Source: Escherichia coli
Lineage (GTDB): Bacteria; Pseudomonadota; Gammaproteobacteria; Enterobacterales; Enterobacteriaceae
NCBI RefSeq assembly: GCF_017348835.2
Contig: NZ_CP071375.1
DNA length: 64,000 nt
Strand: one strand, 5' to 3'
Positions 9,255 to 53,986 of this stretch are shown here, one piece after another. How positions within the stretch are numbered: position 1 is the stretch's first letter; each line of letters opens with the position of its first letter. Made by a program: the position numbers and the translations under genes. The notes beneath the pieces are model-generated. The model searched no databases and was not told where the DNA came from. It worked only from the letters and a program-made list of their open reading frames with translations.

Positions 9255-9947
9255 ATGATGACTAAAATAAAGTTATTGATGCTCATTATATTTTATTTAA
9301 TTATTTCGGCCAGCGCCCATGCTGCCGGAGGGATCGCATTAGGTGCCACGCGTATTATTTATCCCGCTGATGCTAAACAGACTGCGGTATGGATTAGAAA
9401 TAGCCATACCAATGAGCGCTTTCTGGTCAATTCGTGGATTGAAAACAGCAGCGGTGTAAAAGAAAAGTCATTCATCATTACACCGCCACTGTTTGTCAGT
9501 GAACCCAAAAGCGAAAATACTTTGCGTATTATTTACACCGGTCCACCGCTGGCAGCAGATCGTGAGTCTCTGTTCTGGATGAATGTTAAGACGATCCCTT
9601 CGGTAGATAAAAATGCATTGAACGGCAGGAATGTTTTGCAACTGGCGATTTTATCGCGCATGAAGTTATTTCTCCGTCCAATTCAATTACAAGAATTACC
9701 CGCAGAAGCACCGGACACACTCAAGTTTTCGCGATCCGGTAACTATATCAATGTTCATAATCCATCACCTTTTTATGTCACCCTGGTTAACTTACAAGTG
9801 GGCAGCCAAAAGTTGGGGAATGCTATGGCTGCACCCAGAGTTAATTCACAAATTCCCTTACCCTCAGGAGTGCAGGGAAAACTGAAATTTCAGACCGTTA
9901 ATGATTATGGTTCAGTAACCCCGGTCAGAGAAGTGAACTTAAACTAA
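9255..9947 (+). CDS. sfmC: fimbrial periplasmic chaperone
   Basis: 230-aa PapD-like chaperone. Confidence 0.9.
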
Positions 9948-9977
9948 CCGAATCATCTGACAATATCAGAGCTAATT

Positions 9978-12587
9978 ATGAAAATACCCACTACTACGGA
10001 TATTCCGCAGAGGTATACCTGGTGTCTGGCCGGAATTTGTTATTCATCTCTTGCCATTTTACCCTCCTTTTTAAGCTATGCGGAAAGTTATTTCAACCCG
10101 GCATTTTTATTAGAGAATGGCACATCCGTTGCTGATTTATCGCGCTTTGAGAGAGGTAATCATCAACCTGCGGGCGTGTATCGGGTGGATCTCTGGCGTA
10201 ATGATGAGTTCATTGGTTCGCAGGATATCGTATTTGAATCGACAACAGAAAATACTGGTGATAAATCAGGTGGGTTAATGCCCTGTTTTAACCAGGTACT
10301 TCTTGAACGAATTGGCCTTAATAGCAGTGCATTTCCCGAGTTAGCCCAGCAGCAAAACAATAAATGCATCAATTTACTGAAAGCTGTACCTGATGCCACA
10401 ATTAACTTTGATTTTGCAGCGATGCGCCTGAACATCACTATTCCTCAGATAGCGTTGTTGAGTAGCGCTCACGGTTACATTCCGCCTGAAGAGTGGGATG
10501 AAGGTATTCCTGCTTTACTCCTGAATTATAATTTCACCGGTAACAGAGGTAATGGTAACGATAGCTATTTTTTTAGTGAGCTCAGCGGGATTAATATTGG
10601 CCCGTGGCGTTTACGCAACAATGGTTCCTGGAACTATTTTCGCGGAAATGGATATCATTCAGAACAGTGGAATAATATTGGCACCTGGGTACAGCGCGCC
10701 ATTATTCCGCTGAAAAGTGAACTGGTAATGGGAGACGGCAATACAGGAAGTGATATTTTCGATGGTGTTGGATTTCGTGGTGTACGGCTTTATTCTTCCG
10801 ATAATATGTATCCTGATAGCCAGCAAGGGTTTGCCCCAACGGTACGTGGGATTGCCCGTACGGCGGCCCAGCTAACGATTCGGCAAAATGGTTTTATTAT
10901 CTATCAAAGCTATGTTTCCCCCGGCGCTTTTGAAATTACAGATTTGCACCCGACATCTTCAAATGGCGATCTGGATGTCACCATCGACGAGCGCGATGGC
11001 AATCAGCAGAATTACACAATTCCGTATTCAACAGTGCCAATTTTACAACGCGAAGGGCGTTTCAAATTTGACCTGACGGCGGGCGATTTTCGTAGCGGTA
11101 ATAGTCAGCAATCATCGCCTTTCTTTTTTCAGGGCACGGCACTCGGCGGTTTACCACAGGAATTTACTGCCTACGGCGGGACGCAATTATCTGCCAATTA
11201 CACCGCCTTTTTATTAGGGCTGGGGCGCAATCTCGGAAACTGGGGGGCAGTATCTCTGGATGTGACCCATGCGCGCAGTCAGTTAGCCGACGACAGTCGT
11301 CATGAGGGGGATTCTATTCGCTTCCTCTATGCGAAATCGATGAACACCTTCGGCACCAATTTTCAGTTAATGGGTTACCGCTATTCGACACAAGGTTTTT
11401 ATACCCTTGATGATGTTGCGTATCGTCGAATGGAGGGGTACGAATATGATTACGATTACGACGGTGAGCATCGCGATGAACCGATAATCGTGAATTACCA
11501 CAATTTACGCTTTAGCCGTAAAGACCGTTTGCAGTTAAATATTTCACAATCACTTAATGACTTTGGCTCGCTTTATATTTCTGGTACCCATCAAAAATAC
11601 TGGAATACTTCGGATTCAGATACGTGGTATCAGGTGGGGTATACCAGCAGCTGGGTTGGCATCAGTTATTCGCTCTCATTTTCGTGGAATGAATCTGTAG
11701 GGATCCCCGATAACGAACGTATTGTCGGACTTAATGTTTCAGTGCCTTTCAATGTTCTGACCAAACGTCGCTACACCCGGGAAAATGCGCTCGACCGCGC
11801 TTATGCCTCCTTGAACGCCAACCGTAACAGCAACGGGCAAAATAGCTGGCTGGCAGGTGTAGGTGGGACCTTACTGGAAGGCCACAACCTGAGTTATCAC
11901 GTAAGCCAGGGCGATACTTCGAATAATGGGTACACGGGCAGCGCCACGGCAAACTGGCAGGCCGCTTACGGTACGCTGGGGGTCGGGTATAACTACGACC
12001 GCGAGCAACATGACGTTAACTGGCAGCTGTCTGGCGGTGTGGTCGGACATGAAAATGGCATAACGCTGAGCCAGCCTTTAGGGGATACCAATGTTTTGAT
12101 TAAAGCGCCTGGCGCAGGCGGTGTACGCATTGAAAATCAAACTGGCATTTTAACCGACTGGCGCGGCTATGCGGTGATGCCGTATGCCACGGTTTATCGG
12201 TATAACCGTATCGCGCTTGATACCAATACGATGGGGAATTCCATCGATGTTGAAAAAAATATTAGCAGCGTTGTGCCGACGCAAGGCGCGTTGGTTCGTG
12301 CCAATTTTGATACCCGCATAGGCGTGCGGGCGCTCATTACCGTTACCCAGGGCGGAAAACCGGTGCCGTTTGGATCACTGGTACGGGAAAACAGTACCGG
12401 AATAACCAGTATGGTGGGTGATGACGGGCAAGTTTATTTAAGTGGTGCGCCATTGTCTGGTGAATTACTGGTTCAGTGGGGAGACGGCGCGAACTCACGC
12501 TGCATTGCGCACTATGTATTGCCGAAGCAAAGCTTACAGCAAGCCGTCACAGTTATTTCGGCAGTTTGCACACATCCTGGCTCATAA
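9978..12587 (+). CDS. sfmD: fimbrial outer membrane usher
   Basis: 869-aa usher. Confidence 0.9.
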
Positions 12588-15010: not shown

Positions 15011-15087
15011 GCGCCCTTAGCTCAGTTGGATAGAGCAACGACCTTCTAAGTCGTGGGCCGCAGGTTCGAATCCTGCAGGGCGCGCCA
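15011..15087 (+). tRNA. argU: tRNA-Arg (anticodon UCU)
   Basis: 77-nt sequence gcgcccttagctcagttggatagagcaacgaccttctaagtcgtgggccgcaggttcgaatcctgcagggcgcgcca with TCT anticodon and GTTCGAATC T-loop. Confidence 0.95.
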
Positions 15088-26870: not shown

Positions 26871-27953
26871 TTAGAACTGGTAAACCATACCTACAGCAAC
26901 GATATCATCGGTAGCAACGCCAGATGCTTTCGTGAAATCGCTCTTATCAATCAGGTTGATTTTGTAATCAACAAAAGTGGACATATTTTTGTTGAAGTAA
27001 TAGGTTGCACCTACATCAATATATTCAACCAGGTCCTGATCACCCCACGCACCCAAGTCTTTTCCTTTAGATTGCAGGTAAGCAACGGACGGACGCAGAC
27101 CGAAGTCGAACTGATATTGTGCAACTACTTCGAAGTTTTGTGCTTTGTTGGCAATATGGTTATTACCAAAAACAGTCATGTTCTGGGTTTCAGAATAGGT
27201 GGTAGCCAGATAGATGTTGTTCGCATCATATTTCAGACCAGCTGCCCATACTTCAGCATTTTGACCAGATGCATTCAGGCTGTTGTTACCGTAGATAACC
27301 TGATTATTAGTGCGGTCAGATTTAGCATAGGTTGCACCTACACCGAATCCTTCATACTCATACGTAGTGGAGAAACCGAAACCATCACCATTAGCTTCAG
27401 TTACGTCAGTGCGGTCATTTTTACCCTGATACTGAGCAGCAAAGTTCAGACCATCAACCAGACCAAAGAAGTCGTTGTTACGATAAGTTGCAACACCAGT
27501 GGTGCGACCAGTCATGAACACATCTGTTTGGGTCCAGGTATCGCCACCGAATTCTGGCAGAACGTCAGTCCACGCACCGATGTCATATGCTACACCGTAG
27601 TTACGGCCGTAATCGATTGAGCCGTAGTCCCCGAATTTCAGGCCTGCAAATGCAAGACGGGTTTTGTCTTTGGAGGAGCCTTGAGATTCAGCGCGGTTGC
27701 CTTTGAATTCATATTCCCACTGACCGAAACCAGTCAGTTGATCGTTGATTTGGGTTTCACCTTTGAAGCCAAGACGGGCATAAGTAGTATCACCATCATC
27801 TGCATCATTAGAGGAGAAGTAGTGCTTGGCATTAACTTTCCCATATAGATCCAGCTTGTTACTGTCTTTATTATAAATTTCAGCTGCCTGAGCAGACATC
27901 GCCATCAGTACTGATGCGGCTACAGCAGAAATTGCCACTGTTAATTTTTTCAT
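26871..27953 (-). CDS. nmpC: outer membrane general porin (NmpC/OmpD-like), intact
   Basis: 360-aa 16-strand porin with signal peptide and C-terminal ...VGMVYQF. Confidence 0.9.
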
Positions 27954-38775: not shown

Positions 38776-39344
38776 AAGGTCTTGAGCAGGCCGTTGAAAA
38801 CCTCAGCCGTATCAGCAGAACGGCGGTGCCCGGTGCCGCCGCAATGGCCATTAACCGCGTTGCTTCATCCGCGATATCGCAGTCGGTGTCACAGGTTGCC
38901 CGTGAGACAAAGGTACGCCGGAAACTGGTAAAGGAAAGGGCCAGGCTGAAAAGGGCCACGGTCAAAAATCCGCAGGCCAGAATCAAGGTTAACCGGGGGG
39001 ATTTGCCCGTAATCAAGCTGGGTAATGCGCGGGTTGTCCTTTCGCGCCGCAGGCGTCGTAAAAAGGGGCAGCGTTCATCCCTGAAAGGTGGCGGCAGCGT
39101 GCTTGTGGTGGGTAACCGTCGTATTCCCGGCGCGTTTATTCAGCAACTGAAAAATGGCCGGTGGCATGTTATGCAGCGTGTGGCCGGGAAAAACCGTTAC
39201 CCCATTGATGTGGTGAAAATCCCGATGGCGGTGCCGCTGACCACGGCGTTTAAACAAAATATTGAGCGGATACGGCGTGAACGTCTTCCGAAAGAGCTGG
39301 GCTATGCGCTGCAGCATCAACTGAGGATGGTAATAAAGCGATGA
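38766..39344 (+). CDS. Z: tail completion protein Z
   Basis: 192-aa lambda Z-like. Confidence 0.85.
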   Translation: MAIKGLEQAVENLSRISRTAVPGAAAMAINRVASSAISQSVSQVARETKVRRKLVKERARLKRATVKNPQARIKVNRGDLPVIKLGNARVVLSRRRRRKKGQRSSLKGGGSVLVVGNRRIPGAFIQQLKNGRWHVMQRVAGKNRYPIDVVKIPMAVPLTTAFKQNIERIRRERLPKELGYALQHQLRMVIKR

Positions 39345-39736
39345 AACATACTGAACTCCGTGCAGCCGTACTGGATGCACTGGAGAAGCATGACACCGGG
39401 GCGACGTTTTTTGATGGTCGCCCCGCTGTTTTTGATGAGGCGGATTTTCCGGCAGTTGCCGTTTATCTCACCGGCGCTGAATACACGGGCGAAGAGCTGG
39501 ACAGCGATACCTGGCAGGCGGAGCTGCATATCGAAGTTTTCCTGCCTGCTCAGGTGCCGGATTCAGAGCTGGATGCGTGGATGGAGTCCCGGATTTATCC
39601 GGTGATGAGCGATATCCCGGCACTGTCAGAGTTGATCACCAGTATGGTGGCCAGTGGCTATGACTACCGACGCGACGATGATGCGGGCCTGTGGAGTTCA
39701 GCCGATCTGACTTATGTCATTACCTATGAAATGTGA
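39341..39736 (+). CDS. U: tail terminator protein U
   Basis: 131-aa lambda U-like. Confidence 0.85.
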
Positions 39737-39743
39737 GGACGCT

Positions 39744-40484
39744 ATGCCTGTACCAAATCCTGTAATGCCGGTGAAAGGTGCCGGGACCACCCTGTGGGTT
39801 TATAAGGGGAGCGGTGACCCTTATGCGAATCCGCTTTCAGACGTTGACTGGTCGCGTCTGGCAAAAGTTAAAGACCTGACGCCCGGCGAACTGACCGCTG
39901 AGTCCTATGACGACAGCTATCTCGATGATGAAGATGCGGACTGGACTGCGACCGGGCAGGGGCAGAAATCAGCCGGAGATACCAGCTTCACGCTGGCGTG
40001 GATGCCCGGAGAGCAGGGGCAGCAGGCGCTGCTGGCGTGGTTTAATGAAGGTGATACCCGTGCCTATAAAATCCGCTTCCCGAACGGCACGGTCGATGTG
40101 TTCCGTGGCTGGGTCAGCAGTATCGGTAAAGCGGTGACGGCGAAGGAAGTGATCACCCGCACGGTGAAGGTCACCAATGTGGGACGTCCGTCGATGGCAG
40201 AAGATCGCAGCACGGTCACAGCGGCAACCGGCATGACCGTGACGCCTGCCAGCACCTCGGTGGTGAAAGGGCAGAGCACCACGCTGACCGTGGCATTCCA
40301 GCCGGAAGGCGCAACCGACAAGAGCTTCCGTGCGGTGTCTGCGGATAAAACAAAAGCCACCGTGTCGGTCAGTGGTATGACCATCACCGTGAAAGGTGTT
40401 GCTGCAGGCAAGGTCAACATTCCGGTCGTATCCGGTAATGGTGAACTTGCTGCGGTTGCAGAAATCACTGTCACCGACAGTTAA
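39744..40484 (+). CDS. V: major tail tube protein V
   Basis: 246-aa from ATG 39744; C-terminal Ig-like domain. Confidence 0.9.
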
Positions 40485-40499
40485 TCCGGAGAGTCAGCG

Positions 40500-40922
40500 A
40501 TGTTCCTGAAAACCGAATCATTTGAACATAACGGCGTGACCGTCACGCTTTCTGAACTTTCAGCCCTGCAGCGTATTGAGCATCTCGCCCTGATGAAACG
40601 GCAGGCAGAACAGGCGGAGTCAGACAGCAACCGGAAGTTTACAGTGGAAGACGCCATCAGAACCGGTGCTTTTGTGGTGGCGATGTCCCTGTGGCATAAC
40701 CATCCGCAGAAGACAAAGCAGCCTTCCATGAATGAAGCCGTTAAACAGATTGAGCAGGAAGTGCTTACCACCTGGCCCACAGAGGCAATTTCTCATGCTG
40801 AAAACGTGGTGTACCGGCTGTCCGGTATGTATGAGTTTGTGGTGAATGATGCCCCTGAACAGGCAGAGGACGCCGGGCCTGCAGAGCCTGTTTCTGCGGG
40901 AAAGTGTTCGACGGTGAGCTGA
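40500..40922 (+). CDS. G: tail assembly chaperone G
   Basis: 140-aa lambda G-like. Confidence 0.85.
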   Translation: MFLKTESFEHNGVTVTLSELSALQRIEHLALMKRQAEQAESDSNRKFTVEDAIRTGAFVVAMSLWHNHPQKTKQPSMNEAVKQIEQEVLTTWPTEAISHAENVVYRLSGMYEFVVNDAPEQAEDAGPAEPVSAGKCSTVS

Positions 40923-41338
40923 GTTTTGCCCTGAAACTGGCGCGCGAGATGGGGCGACCCGACTGGCGTGCCATGCTTGCCGGGATGTCATCCACGGAGT
41001 ATGCCGACTGGCACCGCTTTTACAGTACCCATTATTTTCATGATGTTCTGCTGGATATGCACTTTTCCGGGCTGACGTACACCGTGCTCAGCCTGTTTTT
41101 CAGCGATCCGGATATGCATCCGCTGGATTTCAGTCTGCTGAACCGGCGTGAGGCTGACGAAGAGCCTGAAGATGATGTGCTGATGCAGAAAGCGGCAGGG
41201 CTTGCCGGAGGCGTCCGCTTTGGCCCGGACGGGAATGAAGTTATCCCCGCTTCCCCGGATGTGGCGGACATGACGGAGGATGACGTAATGCTGATGACAG
41301 TATCAGAAGGGATCGCAGGAGGAGTCCGGTATGGCTGA
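40500..41338 (+). CDS. T: G-T fusion product made by programmed -1 ribosomal frameshift
   Basis: Slippery heptamer G GGA AAG at 40898-40904 near the end of G; the T frame lacks its own start context and continues to 41338. Confidence 0.75.
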
Positions 41339-43892
41339 ACCGGTAGGCGATCTGGTCGTTGATTTAAGTCTGGATGCGGCCAGATTTGACGAGCAGATGG
41401 CCAGAGTCAGGCGTCATTTTTCCGGTACGGAAAGTGATGCGAAAAAAACAGCGGCAGTCGTTGAACAGTCGCTGAGCCGACAGGCGCTGGCTGCACAGAA
41501 AGCGGGGATTTCCGTCGGGCAGTATAAAGCCGCCATGCGTATGCTGCCTGCACAGTTCACCGACGTGGCCACGCAGCTTGCAGGCGGGCAAAGTCCGTGG
41601 CTGATCCTGCTGCAACAGGGGGGGCAGGTGAAGGACTCCTTCGGCGGGATGATCCCCATGTTCAGGGGGCTTGCCGGTGCGATCACCCTGCCGATGGTGG
41701 GGGCCACCTCGCTGGCGGTGGCGACCGGTGCGCTGGCGTATGCCTGGTATCAGGGCAACTCAACCCTGTCCGATTTCAACAAAACGCTGGTCCTTTCCGG
41801 CAATCAGGCGGGACTGACGGCAGATCGTATGCTGGTCCTGTCCAGAGCCGGGCAGGCGGCAGGGCTGACGTTTAACCAGACCAGCGAGTCACTCAGCGCA
41901 CTGGTTAAGGCGGGGGTAAGCGGTGAGGCTCAGATTGCGTCCATCAGCCAGAGTGTGGCGCGTTTCTCCTCTGCATCCGGCGTGGAGGTGGACAAGGTCG
42001 CTGAAGCCTTCGGGAAGCTGACCACAGACCCGACGTCGGGGCTGACGGCGATGGCACGCCAGTTCCATAACGTGACGGCGGAGCAGATTGCGTATGTTGC
42101 TCAGTTGCAGCGTTCCGGCGATGAAGCCGGGGCATTGCAGGCGGCGAACGAGGCCGCAACGAAAGGGTTTGATGACCAGACCCGCCGCCTGAAAGAGAAC
42201 ATGGGCACGCTGGAGACCTGGGCAGACAGGACTGCGCGGGCCTTCAAATCCATGTGGGATGCGGTGCTGGATATTGGTCGTCCTGATACCGCGCAGGAGA
42301 TGCTGATTAAGGCAGAGGCTGCGTTTAAGAAAGCAGACGACATCTGGAATCTGCGCAAGGATGATTATTTTGTTAACGATGAAGCGCGGGCGCGTTACTG
42401 GGATGATCGTGAAAAGGCCCGTCTTGCGCTTGAAGCCGCCCGAAAGAAGGCTGAGCAGCAGACTCAACAGGACAAAAATGCGCAGCAGCAGAGCGATACC
42501 GAAGCGTCACGGCTGAAATATACCGAAGAGGCGCAGAAGGCTTACAAACGGCTGCAGACGCCGCTGGAGAAATATACCGCCCGTCAGGAAGAACTGAACA
42601 AGGCACTGAAAGACGGGAAAATCCTGCAGGCGGATTACAACACGCTGATGGCGGCGGCGAAAAAGGATTATGAAGCGACGCTGAAAAAGCCGAAACAGTC
42701 CGGCGTGAAGGTGTCTGCGGGCGATCGTCAGGAAGACAGTGCTCATGCTGCCCTGCTGACGCTTCAGGCAGAACTCCGGACGCTGGAGAAGCATGCCGGA
42801 GCGAATGAGAAAATCAGCCAGCAGCGCCGGGATTTGTGGAAGGCAGAAAGTCAGTTCGCGGTACTGGAGGAGGCGGCACAACGTCGCCAGCTGTCCGCAC
42901 AGGAGAAATCCCTGCTGGCGCATAAAGATGAGACGCTGGAGTACAAACGCCAGCTGGCTGCACTTGGCGACAAGGTTACGTATCAGGAGCGCCTGAACGC
43001 GCTGGCGCAGCAGGCGGATAAATTCGCACAGCAGCAACGGGCAAAACGGGCCGCCATTGATGCGAAAAGCCGGGGGCTGACTGACCGGCAGGCAGAACGG
43101 GAAGCCACGGAACAGCGCCTGAAGGAACAGTATGGCGATAATCCGCTGGCGCTGAATAACGTCATGTCAGAGCAGAAAAAGACCTGGGCGGCTGAAGACC
43201 AGCTTCGCGGGAGCTGGATGGCAGGCCTGAAGTCCGGCTGGAGTGAGTGGGAAGAGAGCGCCACGGACAGTATGTCGCAGGTAAAAAGTGCAGCCACGCA
43301 GACCTTTGATGGTATTGCACAGAATATGGCAGCGATGCTGACCGGCAGTGAGCAGAACTGGCGCAGCTTCACCCGTTCCGTGCTGTCCATGATGACAGAA
43401 ATTCTGCTTAAGCAGGCAATGGTGGGGATTGTCGGGAGTATCGGCAGCGCCATTGGCGGGGCTGTTGGTGGCGGCGCATCCGCGTCAGGCGGTACAGCCA
43501 TTCAGGCCGCTGCGGCGAAATTCCATTTTGCAACCGGAGGATTTACGGGAACCGGCGGCAAATATGAGCCAGCGGGGATTGTTCACCGTGGTGAATTTGT
43601 CTTCACGAAGGAGGCAACCAGCCGGATTGGCGTGGGGAATCTCTACCGGCTGATGCGCGGCTATGCCACCGGTGGTTATGTCGGTACACCGGGCAGTCTG
43701 GCTGACAGCCGGTCGCAGGCGTCCGGGACGTTTGAGCAGAATAACCATGTGGTGATTAACAACGACGGCACGAACGGGCAGATAGGTCCGGCTGCTCTGA
43801 AGGCGGTGTATGACATGGCCCGCAAGGGTGCCCGTGATGAAATTCAGACACAGATGCGTGATGGTGGCCTGTTCTCCGGAGGTGGACGATGA
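41331..43892 (+). CDS. H: tail tape measure protein H
   Basis: 853-aa lambda H-like. Confidence 0.9.
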   Translation: MAEPVGDLVVDLSLDAARFDEQMARVRRHFSGTESDAKKTAAVVEQSLSRQALAAQKAGISVGQYKAAMRMLPAQFTDVATQLAGGQSPWLILLQQGGQVKDSFGGMIPMFRGLAGAITLPMVGATSLAVATGALAYAWYQGNSTLSDFNKTLVLSGNQAGLTADRMLVLSRAGQAAGLTFNQTSESLSALVKAGVSGEAQIASISQSVARFSSASGVEVDKVAEAFGKLTTDPTSGLTAMARQFHNVTAEQIAYVAQLQRSGDEAGALQAANEAATKGFDDQTRRLKENMGTLETWADRTARAFKSMWDAVLDIGRPDTAQEMLIKAEAAFKKADDIWNLRKDDYFVNDEARARYWDDREKARLALEAARKKAEQQTQQDKNAQQQSDTEASRLKYTEEAQKAYKRLQTPLEKYTARQEELNKALKDGKILQADYNTLMAAAKKDYEATLKKPKQSGVKVSAGDRQEDSAHAALLTLQAELRTLEKHAGANEKISQQRRDLWKAESQFAVLEEAAQRRQLSAQEKSLLAHKDETLEYKRQLAALGDKVTYQERLNALAQQADKFAQQQRAKRAAIDAKSRGLTDRQAEREATEQRLKEQYGDNPLALNNVMSEQKKTWAAEDQLRGSWMAGLKSGWSEWEESATDSMSQVKSAATQTFDGIAQNMAAMLTGSEQNWRSFTRSVLSMMTEILLKQAMVGIVGSIGSAIGGAVGGGASASGGTAIQAAAAKFHFATGGFTGTGGKYEPAGIVHRGEFVFTKEATSRIGVGNLYRLMRGYATGGYVGTPGSLADSRSQASGTFEQNNHVVINNDGTNGQIGPAALKAVYDMARKGARDEIQTQMRDGGLFSGGGR

Positions 43893-44218
43893 AAACCTTC
43901 CGCTGGAAAGTGAAACCCGGTATGGATGTGGCTTCGGCCCCTTCTGTAAGAAAGGTGCGCTTTGGTGATGGCTATTCCCAGCGAGCGCCTGCCGGGCTGA
44001 ATGCCAACCTGAAAACGTACAGCGTGACGCTTTCTGTCCCCCGTGAGGAGGCCACGGTACTGGAGTCGTTTCTGGAAGAGCACGGGGGCTGGAAATCCTT
44101 TCTGTGGACGCCGCCTTATGAGTGGCGGCAGATAAAGGTGACCTGCGCAAAATGGTCGTCGCGGGTCAGTATGCTGCGTGTTGAGTTCAGCGCAGAGTTT
44201 GAACAGGTGGTGAACTGA
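43889..44218 (+). CDS. M: tail tip protein M
   Basis: 109-aa. Confidence 0.85.
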   Translation: MKTFRWKVKPGMDVASAPSVRKVRFGDGYSQRAPAGLNANLKTYSVTLSVPREEATVLESFLEEHGGWKSFLWTPPYEWRQIKVTCAKWSSRVSMLRVEFSAEFEQVVN

Positions 44219-49777: not shown

Positions 49778-50377
49778 ATGCGTAAACTTTATGCCGCCAT
49801 TTTGTCCGCAGCCATTTGTCTGGCCGTATCCGGTGCGCCTGCATGGGCATCTGAACATCAGTCCACGCTGAGCGCGGGGTATCTTCATGCCTCGACGAAC
49901 GTTCCCGGCAGCGATGATCTTAACGGGATTAACGTGAAATACCGTTATGAGTTTACGGACACACTGGGGCTGGTGACGTCATTCAGCTATGCAGGAGACA
50001 AGAATCGCCAGCTTACCCGTTACAGCGATACCCGCTGGCATGAAGATTCCGTGCGTAACCGCTGGTTCAGCGTGATGGTGGGGCCGTCTGTGCGCGTGAA
50101 TGAATGGTTCAGCGCGTATGCGATGGCGGGTATGGCTTACAGCCGTGTGTCGACTTTCTCCGGGGATTATCTCCGCGTAACTGACAACAAGGGGAAAACG
50201 CACGACGTGCTGACCGGAAGTGATGACGGTCGCCACAGCAACACGTCTCTGGCGTGGGGAGCTGGCGTGCAGTTTAACCCGACCGAATCCGTGGCCATTG
50301 ATATTGCTTATGAAGGCTCCGGCAGTGGCGACTGGCGCACTGACGGTTTCATCGTGGGTGTCGGTTATAAATTCTGA
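49778..50377 (+). CDS. lom: Lom outer membrane protein (Ail/Lom/PagC family)
   Basis: 199-aa beta-barrel OMP with signal peptide, C-terminal ...GVGYKF. Confidence 0.85.
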
Positions 50378-50441: not shown

Positions 50442-53402
50442 ATGGCAGTAAAGATTTCAGGTGTACTGAAAGACGGCACAGGAAAACCGGTACAGAACTG
50501 CATAATCCAGCTGAAAGCAAAACGTAACAGCACCACGGTGGTGGTGAACACGCTGGCCTCAGAAAATCCGGATGAAGCCGGGCGTTACAGCATGGACGTT
50601 GAGTACGGTCAGTACAGCGTTATTCTGTTGGTGGAGGGATTCCCGCCGTCACATGCCGGGACCATCACCGTGTATGAAGATTCTCAACCCGGTACGCTGA
50701 ATGATTTTCTCGGTGCCATGACGGAGGATGATGCCCGTCCGGAGGCACTGCGTCGTTTTGAACTGATGGTGGAAGAGGTGGCGCGTAACGCGTCCGTGGT
50801 GGCACAGAACACGGCAGCCGCAAAGAAGTCAGCCAGTGATGCCAGCACATCTGCCAGTGAGGCGGCAACCCGTGCGACTGATGCTGCAGATTCAGCACGT
50901 GCAGCCAGCACGTCAGCCGGACAGGCCGCGTCGTCGGCTCAGTCAGCGTCTTCCAGCGCAGGAACGGCATCAGCAAAAGCCTCTGAGGCATCAAAAAGTG
51001 CTGCCGCTGCAGAGTCCTCAAAAAGCGCGGCGGCTACCAGTGCCGGTGCGGCGAAAACGTCAGAAACGAATGCGGCAGCGTCAGAACAATCAGCCGCCAC
51101 TTCTGCATCCACCGCGACCACGAAAGCGTCAGAAGCTGCCACCTCAGCCCGGGATGCGGCGGCCTCAAAAGAGGCGGCAAAATCATCAGAAACGAGCGCA
51201 GCCTCGAGCGCCAGTAATGCCGCTTCCTCGGCAACGGCGGCAGGAAATTCCGCGAAGGCGGCAAAGACGTCTGAGACAAACGCTAAGTCCTCTGAAACGG
51301 CAGCAGCACAGAGTGCCTCCGCAGGCGCAGACTCAAAAACAGCGGCTGCATCATCTGCCAGCGCCGCGTCAACAAGTGCCGGGCAGGCCTCAGCCAGTGC
51401 CACCGCTGCCGGAAAGTCGGCAGAAAGTGCCGCATCGTCTGCTTCAACAGCCACAACGAAGGCTGGCGAAGCCACTGAACAGGCCAGCGCAGCAGCGAGT
51501 TCTGCTTCCGCAGCGAAGACATCCGAAACGAACGCGAAAGCGTCGGAAACCAGCGCAGAATCCTCAAAAACTGCTGCCGCATCGTCAGCCAGTTCGGCGG
51601 CGTCATCGGCATCATCTGCGTCTGCTTCAAAAGATGAGGCGACCAGACAAGCGTCAGCAGCGAAGAGCAGCGCCACGACGGCATCCACGAAGGCGACAGA
51701 GGCAGCTGGCAGTGCGACGGCGGCAGCTCAGAGCAAAAGTACGGCGGAATCCGCGGCAACGCGCGCCGAGACAGCGGCAAAACGGGCAGAGGATATTGCA
51801 TCCGCCGTGGCGCTTGAAGATGCGAGCACGACGAAAAAGGGGATAGTACAGCTCAGCAGTGCGACTAACAGCACTTCCGAGTCACTGGCGGCAACGCCAA
51901 AAGCAGTTAAGTCCGCGTATGACCTGGCTAACGGGAAATACACCGCACAGGATGCAACGACAGCACAGAAAGGGATAGTTCAGCTCAGCAGCGCGACCAA
52001 CAGCACATCTGAAATGCTGGCGGCAACGCCAAAGTCGGTAAAGGCAGCCTATGACCTTGCTAACGGGAAATATACCGCTCAGGACGCTACGACAGCACAA
52101 AAAGGAATTATCCAGCTCAGTAGTGCAACCAACAGCGCATCTGAAACGCTTGCCGCGACACCGAAAGCAGTGAAAGCAGCTAATGATAATGCGAATGGTC
52201 GGGTACCTTCTGCCCGTAAGGTGAATGGTAAGGCGCTTTCAGCGGATATAACACTGACGCCGAAAGATATTGGTACGCTTAACTCAACAACAATGTCATT
52301 CAGCGGTGGTGCTGGTTGGTTCAAATTAGCAACGGTAACCATGCCACAGGCGAGTTCTGTTGTTTCAATTACGTTGATTGGTGGCGCGGGATTTAACGTG
52401 GGGTCACCTCAACAGGCAGGTATATCTGAACTTGTTTTGCGTGCAGGTAATGGTAATCCGAAGGGGATTACTGGTGCTTTATGGCAGCGCACATCGACAG
52501 GGTTTACAAATTTTGCCTGGGTCAATACATCTGGTGATACTTACGATATTTACGTTGCAATCGGAAATTATGCGACTGGTGTAAATATTCAATGGGATTA
52601 TACCAGTAATGCCAGCGTGACTATTCATACGTCACCAGCATATTCTGCTAATAAGCCGGAAGGGTTAACGGACGGTACAGTTTATTCACTCTATACGCCA
52701 TCAGAGCAGTTTTATCCGCCTGGCGCACCAATCCCGTGGCCATCAGATACCGTTCCGTCTGGTTATGCCCTGATGCAGGGGCAGACTTTTGACAAATCTG
52801 CATACCCGAAACTTGCAGCCGCTTATCCGTCAGGCGTGATCCCTGATATGCGTGGCTGGACGATTAAGGGCAAACCCGCCAGTGGTCGTGCCGTATTGTC
52901 TCAGGAACAGGACGGCATTAAATCGCACACCCACAGCGCCAGCGCATCCAGTACGGATTTGGGGACGAAAACCACATCGTCGTTTGATTACGGCACTAAA
53001 TCCACGAATAACACCGGGGCTCATACGCACAGTCTGAGCGGCTCTACAAGCTCGGCCGGAGCACACTCGCACGTTGATGGTCGCAGGTTTAATACAAGCA
53101 CTTTTAAAGACACCTATCAGTATGGTTCTACAGCTGTCGGAAGTAACTCATACCAGGTACAAGGGGCGGTTGGTCTGGGCATTGGCACGATGGCGAATAC
53201 GAACTCTGCTGGCGCGCATACCCACTCACTGTCCGGCACTGCTGCAAGCGCAGGTGCACACGCACATACTGTCGGTATTGGTGCTCATACGCACTCCGTT
53301 GCGATTGGCTCACATGGACACACCATCACCGTTAACGCTGCTGGTAACGCGGAAAACACCGTCAAAAACATCGCATTTAACTATATTGTGAGGCTTGCAT
53401 AA
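50442..53402 (+). CDS. stf: side tail fibre protein (Stf)
   Basis: 986-aa; conserved N-terminus, long Ala/Ser-rich low-complexity region, three tandem 40-aa repeats, C-terminal HxH repeats. Confidence 0.85.
51835..52194 (+). repeat. 3 x 120-nt tandem in-frame repeats within stf
   Basis: Repeat protein unit [15 protein letters not shown](S/M)LAATPK(A/S)VK(S/A)[18 protein letters not shown]. Confidence 0.7.
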
Positions 53403-53986
53403 TGGCATTCAGAATGAGTGAACAAGCACGGACCATAAAAATTTATAATCTGCTGGCCGGAACTAATGAATTTATTGGTGAAGGTGATGCATATATTCCG
53501 CCTCATACAGGTCTGCCAGCAAACAGTACCGATATTGCACCACCAGATATTCCTGCTGGCTTTGTGGCTGTTTTCAACAGTGATGAGGCATCGTGGCATC
53601 TCGTTGAAGACCATCTGGGTAAAACGGTTTATGACGTAGCGTCAGGGGACGAGTTATTTATTTCTGAACTCGGTCCGTTACCGGAAAATGTTACCTGGTT
53701 ATCGCCGGAAGGGGAGTTTCAGAAGTGGAACGGCACAGCCTGGGTGAAAGATGCAGAAGCAGAAAAACTGTTCCGGATCCGAGAGGCGGAAGAAATAAAA
53801 AACAGCCTGATGCAGGTAGCCAGTGAGCATATTGCGCCACTTCAGGATGCTGTAGATCTGGAAATCGCAACGGAGGAAGAAACCTCATTGTTGGAAGCCT
53901 GGAAAAAGTATCGGGTGTTGCTGAACCGTGTTGATACATCAACTGCACCTGATATTGAGTGGCCTACGAATCCTGTCAGGGAGTAA
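53402..53986 (+). CDS. tfa: tail fibre assembly protein (Tfa)
   Basis: 194-aa, start overlaps the stf stop. Confidence 0.85.

Follow-up and report, generated by a model that had tools for sequence, protein, structure and literature searches.

The G–T junction of a lambdoid Escherichia coli prophage very probably carries a lambda-type programmed -1 ribosomal frameshift site

The stretch of Escherichia coli DNA analysed here (64,000 nucleotides of contig NZ_CP071375.1, referred to as the window in the following) contains a phage tail gene, G, that runs into an overlapping reading frame, T, and thus raises the question of how this second frame comes to be translated: is T a gene of its own, or is it reached by ribosomes that change frame near the end of G? 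The G/GT frameshift is a classic case of recoding, present in most long-tailed phages. The original prediction had proposed it for this locus from the sequence; in the following, we describe the junction and its genomic setting, compare it with related loci, and weigh the frameshift against other ways of expressing T.

The locus belongs to a lambdoid prophage of ~40 kb (about 15100-54700) at an argU/DLP12-type site. A tRNA-Arg(tct) gene (15011-15087) marks its left end, and on its right side lie genes for a methyltransferase and an alpha/beta hydrolase, followed by ompT, a disrupted envY, ybcH and nfrA. This prophage is by no means rare: the interval 39000-44000 has a 100% identical counterpart in E. 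coli PE164 and in several O103/O26 STEC genomes, and the tail region has matches in 4123 of 5426 complete E. coli genomes. Besides the tail module, the prophage carries moron genes, namely a porin gene (26871-27953, minus strand), an iss/bor-like gene and lom (49778-50377), and a full-length match to the Rfam family IS009 (RF02111, 225 bits) is found at 53745-53943, inside the tail fibre assembly ORF 53402-53986.

Gene G (40500..40922, plus strand) starts with an ATG that is preceded by the Shine-Dalgarno (SD) sequence GGAG (-6.6 kcal/mol, spacing 7). Its zero-frame product, the tail assembly chaperone gpG, has 140 residues, of which residues 1-125 give a full-length match to the Pfam family of the lambda tail assembly chaperone G (PF06894, Phage_TAC_2) with an E-value of 4.9e-59 and a score of 198 bits, against a cutoff of 27; it likewise matches phrog_42 (E 6e-54), and the 100% identical RefSeq record lists it as WP_000479169.1, 'phage tail assembly chaperone G'. 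The conceptual -1 fusion, gpGT, consists of G residues 1-135 and the -1 frame, and has 279 residues; its T segment (40905..41338, plus strand) is read in codons that begin with the G at 40904, followed by TG. With the fusion comes a match to PF06223 (Phage_tail_T, minor tail protein T), which has an E-value of 5.8e-14 and, at 52.7 bits, lies above the cutoff of 25.9, and T also matches phrog_39 (E 1.4e-55). A further family, phrog_32165, is matched by both parts one after the other along a single profile of 290 positions, by G at 1-142 and by T at 140-285, which indicates that this family was modelled on fused GT proteins. A PDB sequence search with gpGT returned no solved relative.

The neighbouring genes are those expected of a lambda-like tail module, with G and T flanked by the tail tube gene on one side and the tape measure gene on the other, in the order V-G-T-H. 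Immediately upstream lies gene V for the major tail tube protein (39744..40484, plus strand), a RefSeq CDS that matches PF16461 (E 1.6e-70) and Big_2; immediately downstream lies gene H for the tape measure protein (41331..43892, plus strand), which matches PF06791 (E 7e-70) and PF09718. The ATG of H at 41331 overlaps the end of T by 8 nt and is preceded by the strong SD sequence AGGAGG (-10.3 kcal/mol, spacing 7). A promoter and terminator scan of 39500-42000 gave no promoter-like site, and nothing meaningful inside G-T. At its C-terminus (41180-41335), T of the lambda and Stx types carries a tandem duplication of a C-terminal motif (DDVLMQKAAGLAGGVRFG... and DDVMLMTVSEGIAGGVRYG); in our alignment, the T domains of the N15, phi80 and Gifsy-1 types stop after a single copy.

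Where the two frames meet, a direct reading of the sequence and of the ORF register confirms the proposed slippery heptamer GGGAAAG at 40898-40904 (plus strand). Relative to the codons of the ORF 40500-40922, which start at 40500+3k, its phase is G_GGA_AAG, i.e. X_XXY_YYZ, so that the zero-frame 3' end of G reads GCG GGA AAG TGT TCG ACG GTG AGC TGA. The heptamer is separated by 15 nt (5 codons) from the TGA stop codon of G (40920-40922, plus strand), which shifted ribosomes would bypass; the distance of 18 nt given in the original prediction is correct when measured to the last base of this codon, but not to the stop codon itself. The -1 frame contains no stop codon between 40859 and the TGA at 41336-41338, with 146 codons past the heptamer, and T thus extends to 41338 as had been proposed.

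The bare heptamer is found in the window at chance frequency, with 8 copies on both strands against 7.7 +/- 2.5 expected from dinucleotide-preserving shuffles, and there is no enrichment; therefore, we take phase and ORF context as evidence instead. Only one of these 8 copies, the one at 40898, combines the right phase within a long ORF with a long -1 ORF behind it, while the other 7 are either out of phase with the real genes that contain them or confined to spurious open stretches of short length. An in-phase GGGAAAG within the 21-codon overlap of G and T would be expected by chance with a probability of ~0.002, as estimated from base composition.

The closest known counterpart is phage lambda itself (NC_001416; G at 9711-10133, T at 10115-10549). 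A comparison of the two G-T junctions, the check named in the original prediction, finds 64 nt around the site identical, and base-for-base agreement from 17 nt before the heptamer to 44 nt after it; over the whole G-T region, nucleotide alignment gives ~98% identity to lambda and to phage 434. The locus shares with the lambda G/G-T system (Levin, Hendrix & Casjens 1993; Xu, Hendrix & Duda 2004, 2013, 2014) the heptamer, its phase and the 15 nt to the G stop, as well as a G of 140 residues, a T frame of 144 codons, a GT of 279 residues and the V-G-T-H order, and the GT proteins are 97.5% identical. It differs in scattered substitutions elsewhere in G only (e.g. residues 59 and 73-75), and in being part of an integrated prophage at the argU tRNA site. 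The conserved lambda G/GT arrangement that had been claimed is thus borne out by the identical junction, the Pfam matches of both halves, the gene order and the conservation of the site in relatives, and we have very little doubt that the site is a lambda-type G/GT programmed -1 ribosomal frameshift site in a lambdoid prophage. Given that the sequence around it is identical to that of lambda, we infer that the frameshift would work in this prophage by the same mechanism.

This arrangement extends well beyond lambda and its nearest kin. A tblastn search with the fusion found matches in 185 phage records, and among the matches listed, all 40 of 40 came in two pieces, i.e. in two frames, with identities of 36-99%. 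For a closer view of the junction, we compared 96 related loci, comprising lambda, 434, 14 further phage records and 80 IMG/VR contigs, and including E. coli lambdoids, Gifsy-1, and Providencia and Vibrio phages (36-99% protein identity where measured). An in-phase shift-prone site is present at the homologous codon in 95 of these 96 loci; the remaining one (L071) is unparsable and has no anchoring motif. The first 90 entries of this collection, i.e. 89 related loci and the window, contain 24 distinct junctions, with GGGAAAG in 82 entries and AAAAAAG and GGAAAAG in four each. Further loci have GGAAAAG (N15, mEp213, Eeyore and a Providencia phage), AAAAAAG (a further Stx2 phage) or C_CCA_AAA (a Vibrio phage). 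With the exception of the Vibrio phage, the A-site codon is AAG in all parsed loci; AAA is the commoner Lys codon in E. coli and lambda (PMC3296357 Table 2).

The position of the G stop falls into two classes, 15 nt after the site in the lambda, 434, Stx, N15 and phi80 types and 0-3 nt after it in Gifsy-1, Tritos, Providencia and Vibrio. Two distant gpG/gpT homologs belong to the latter class: Vibrio phage K242 (L095) has C_CCA_AAA at 910-916, 3 nt before the stop, and Providencia phage PSTCR8lys (L096) has G_GAA_AAG at 907-913, with a TAG directly after it. In both of these records, G and T are annotated as separate genes.

Such an annotation corresponds to the first alternative, in which T is an independent gene with a start of its own and the heptamer is incidental. 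In its favor, there is a GTG in the T frame at 40904, which PGAP in the identical RefSeq record and the lambda record NC_001416 both annotate as the start of a separate CDS (PGAP product WP_000459457.1, 'phage tail assembly protein T', locus NZ_CP114128 LZG51_RS17630). This GTG, which overlaps the heptamer, is the sole upstream start in the T frame, but its best anti-SD duplex (-4.3 kcal/mol) ends 1 nt from the codon, an unusable spacing, compared with -6.6 to -10.8 kcal/mol at 3-8 nt for the starts of G, H, M, U and Z. The anti-SD duplex energies at the next T-frame ATGs (40949, 40973 and 40985) reveal no SD sequence either.

The comparison with relatives points in the same direction. Where the shift site is kept, the codon corresponding to GTG 40904 is replaced by GTC, GTA, GCG, GCA or GCC, and in many relatives the stretch from the upstream T-frame stop to the conserved LARE motif is entirely free of T-frame start codons. 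T-frame conservation instead begins right at the Lys of the shift site: across 7 GT fusions with identities of 33-72%, K135 and E140, F143, L147, A148, R149 and E150 are invariant, and the first T-frame ATG comes only after all of them. Free gpT was reportedly not detected in lambda by Levin et al. in 1993. Reviews describe the lambda T frame as expressed via the gpGT fusion, which is made by -1 frameshifting (PMC5009743). Other records have adopted this reading, with the GT product of phage 434 annotated as a two-piece join (OL657226) and the homologous GGAAAAG of N15 as 'slippery sequence for -1 translational frameshift' (NC_001901). From these comparisons, the T frame appears to be devoid of a functional translation start of its own. 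The claim that it has no start context is right in substance, with the qualification that a nominal GTG does exist, lacking a usable SD sequence and not conserved; an independent ribosome-binding site with its start, named beforehand as the observation that would speak against a frameshift, was not found in usable form among the T-frame candidates. We consider an independently started T very unlikely.

Even less probable is expression by termination and reinitiation, in which ribosomes would stop at the TGA of G at 40920 and restart at the T-frame ATG at 40949, 40973 or 40985. Translational coupling is frequent among phage genes that overlap or adjoin each other, and the ATG at 40949 is only 27 nt past the stop; however, a product begun there would miss the invariant VF/LxxELxFxLxLARE segment upstream of it, its Met corresponds to Phe in N15, HK225, phi80, Gifsy-1 and Tritos, there is no SD sequence (-1.8 kcal/mol), and the conserved in-phase slippery motif would be left unexplained. 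A frame change at the RNA level, by transcriptional slippage of RNA polymerase on the A run, is just as improbable. Such slippage is used in some bacterial and IS genes (PMC5009743), and some relatives do have a 6-A run (AAAAAAG). The GGGAAAG of the window and of lambda, however, contains only three As. Efficient polymerase slippage generally needs homopolymer runs much longer than this. In addition, thiolation of tRNA-Lys at U34, which acts on the ribosome, affects the gpG:gpGT ratio of lambda (PMC3296357).

In the preferred reading, a lambda-type programmed ribosomal frameshift, ribosomes would begin at the ATG of G at 40500, and most of them would read GGA AAG in the zero frame, stop at the TGA at 40920 and release gpG (140 residues). 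A few percent (~4% in lambda) would slip back by one base with GGA in the P site and AAG in the A site, whereupon the tRNAs would re-pair from GGA to GGG and from AAG to AAA, respectively; the single E. coli tRNA-Lys(mnm5s2UUU) pairs weakly with AAG. The shifted ribosomes would continue in the T frame as far as the TGA at 41336-41338 and yield gpGT (279 residues). In lambda, this frameshift has been demonstrated by experiment: the passages of PMC5009743 and PMC3296357 that cite Levin et al. 1993 give a shift of ~4% at G_GGA_AAG and a gpG:gpGT ratio of roughly 30:1, with both products needed for the assembly of the tail. The motif is among the most shift-prone in E. coli, with the gpG cluster marked as 'true' (PMC4066793), and hypomodification of tRNA-Lys(mnm5s2U34) raises the shift and lowers the phage yield (PMC3296357).

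The functions of the two products can be transferred from lambda. According to the relevant passages of PMC5009743, PMC3296357 and PMC7618472 (citing Levin 1993 and Xu 2004-2014), the G moiety binds the tape measure protein, while the T domain binds to the tail tube protein, whose polymerisation it nucleates; the same passages describe gpG and gpGT as absent from the virion and their ratio as important. By homology, the G part that both proteins share would here coat H, the tape measure protein, and recruitment of V, the tail tube protein, would fall to the T domain of the rare gpGT. Because G would act on H while T of the rare fusion would act on V, the frameshift rate would determine the gpG:gpGT ratio required for the tail to assemble, and both proteins would be missing from the virion.

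A question that follows from these rates is whether the heptamer acts by itself. In reporters, the shift at G_GGA_AAG was 0.28% without a stimulator; moderate IS911 stimulators brought it to 3.8%, and the IS3 pseudoknot to 43% (Sharma et al. 2014, PMC4066793). The difference between 0.28% without a stimulator and ~4% in lambda suggests some stimulation, and the heptamer alone may not account for the lambda rate. A candidate stimulator is a branched stem-loop at 40912..40982 (plus strand), which is predicted when the 86 nt that follow the heptamer are folded, and whose start lies 7 nt 3' of the heptamer. Its predicted outer helix pairs 40912-40919 with 40975-40982 and its inner hairpin spans 40939-40971; the minimum free energy is -38.1 kcal/mol (z -2.78), and none of 200 shuffles folds as well. 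HK225, phi80 and Stx1 phages are predicted to adopt a matching architecture (z -4.5, -3.5 and -3.2, respectively). In Gifsy-1, Tritos and the Providencia phage, which also differ from lambda in having the G stop next to the site, the lambda-type stem-loop is not predicted (z about 0).

Across an alignment of 19 sequences, pairing holds in 91% of cells and two-sided changes occur at 6 pairs, with the structure derived from this same alignment. The pairing score was reached by none of 500 shuffles and by no slid control, a result that has to be read with the caveat that the stem-loop region encodes the most conserved peptide of T. Extra constraint on synonymous sites over the stem-loop was not seen, with a diversity of 0.25 vs 0.30; this lack of a clear drop agrees with the entry 'RVSS: N' that Sharma 2014 (Table S4, PMC4066793) gives for the cluster G_GGA_AAG_4 gpG, marked as 'true', alongside 'downstream structure: Y'. 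An Rfam scan of the G-T region at E<=10 returned chance-level miRNA and snoRNA matches only, and no curated RNA family. Levin et al. are said to have seen some downstream effect, with no structure identified. Our literature search found no text on their test of downstream sequences, and no definition or test of the downstream structure of the gpG cluster beyond the computational flag of 2014. We tentatively suggest, while regarding it as the less probable case, that the stem-loop at 40912-40982, with its compensatory changes in the lambda, Stx, N15 and phi80 clades, could be a moderate stimulator that raises the shift from ~0.3% to the ~4% required by tail assembly, and that Gifsy-1, Tritos and Providencia might use the adjacent stop instead.

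Related systems include the phages of the G_GAA_AAG type (N15, HK225, phi80 and Gifsy-1), with homologous G and T (36-54% identity), a shift at the homologous Lys codon AAG and the same gene order. Unlike in lambda, however, their P-site codon GAA would re-pair imperfectly, so that the shift at GGAAAAG is probably a single-tRNA A_AAG slippage. The E. coli dnaX site A_AAA_AAG has the tRNA-Lys/AAG slippage chemistry and the host in common with the G-T site (PMC5009743), but shifts at ~50%, with an upstream SD sequence and a downstream hairpin, and gives the shorter product, whereas the G-T shift occurs at ~4% and gives the longer one.

The window itself contains a second programmed -1 frameshift, in an IS3-family element inserted in envY (58726-59939), which consists of orfA (58726-59052) and orfB (59052-59939), with an A run at 59044-59049 at the end of orfA; the identical RefSeq record labels it 'programmed frameshift'. 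As in G-T, two overlapping ORFs are joined by a -1 shift shortly before the first of them ends, and Lys-codon A runs are used; a downstream RNA structure takes part in the IS3-family shift, and in G-T such a structure is a predicted candidate. By contrast, the resulting protein is an unrelated one, a transposase, and the stimulator is strong and curated, namely the ALIL pseudoknot (59007-59123; Rfam RF01497, 120 bits).

The G/GT frameshift described here is an already known one, in a very common E. coli prophage, and its practical value lies in annotation, since the reference records of the window sequence and of lambda (RefSeq) give T from a GTG and not the gpGT fusion. The GTG at 40904 is almost certainly not used as a start of T, and thousands of E. 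coli genomes probably share a systematic artefact of annotation, in which T is listed as a CDS on its own; protein counts and families that are built from records with T as a separate gene inherit this error. As for the prophage, the site is intact, as are V, H and the downstream tail genes, which suggests that its tail module is still functional.
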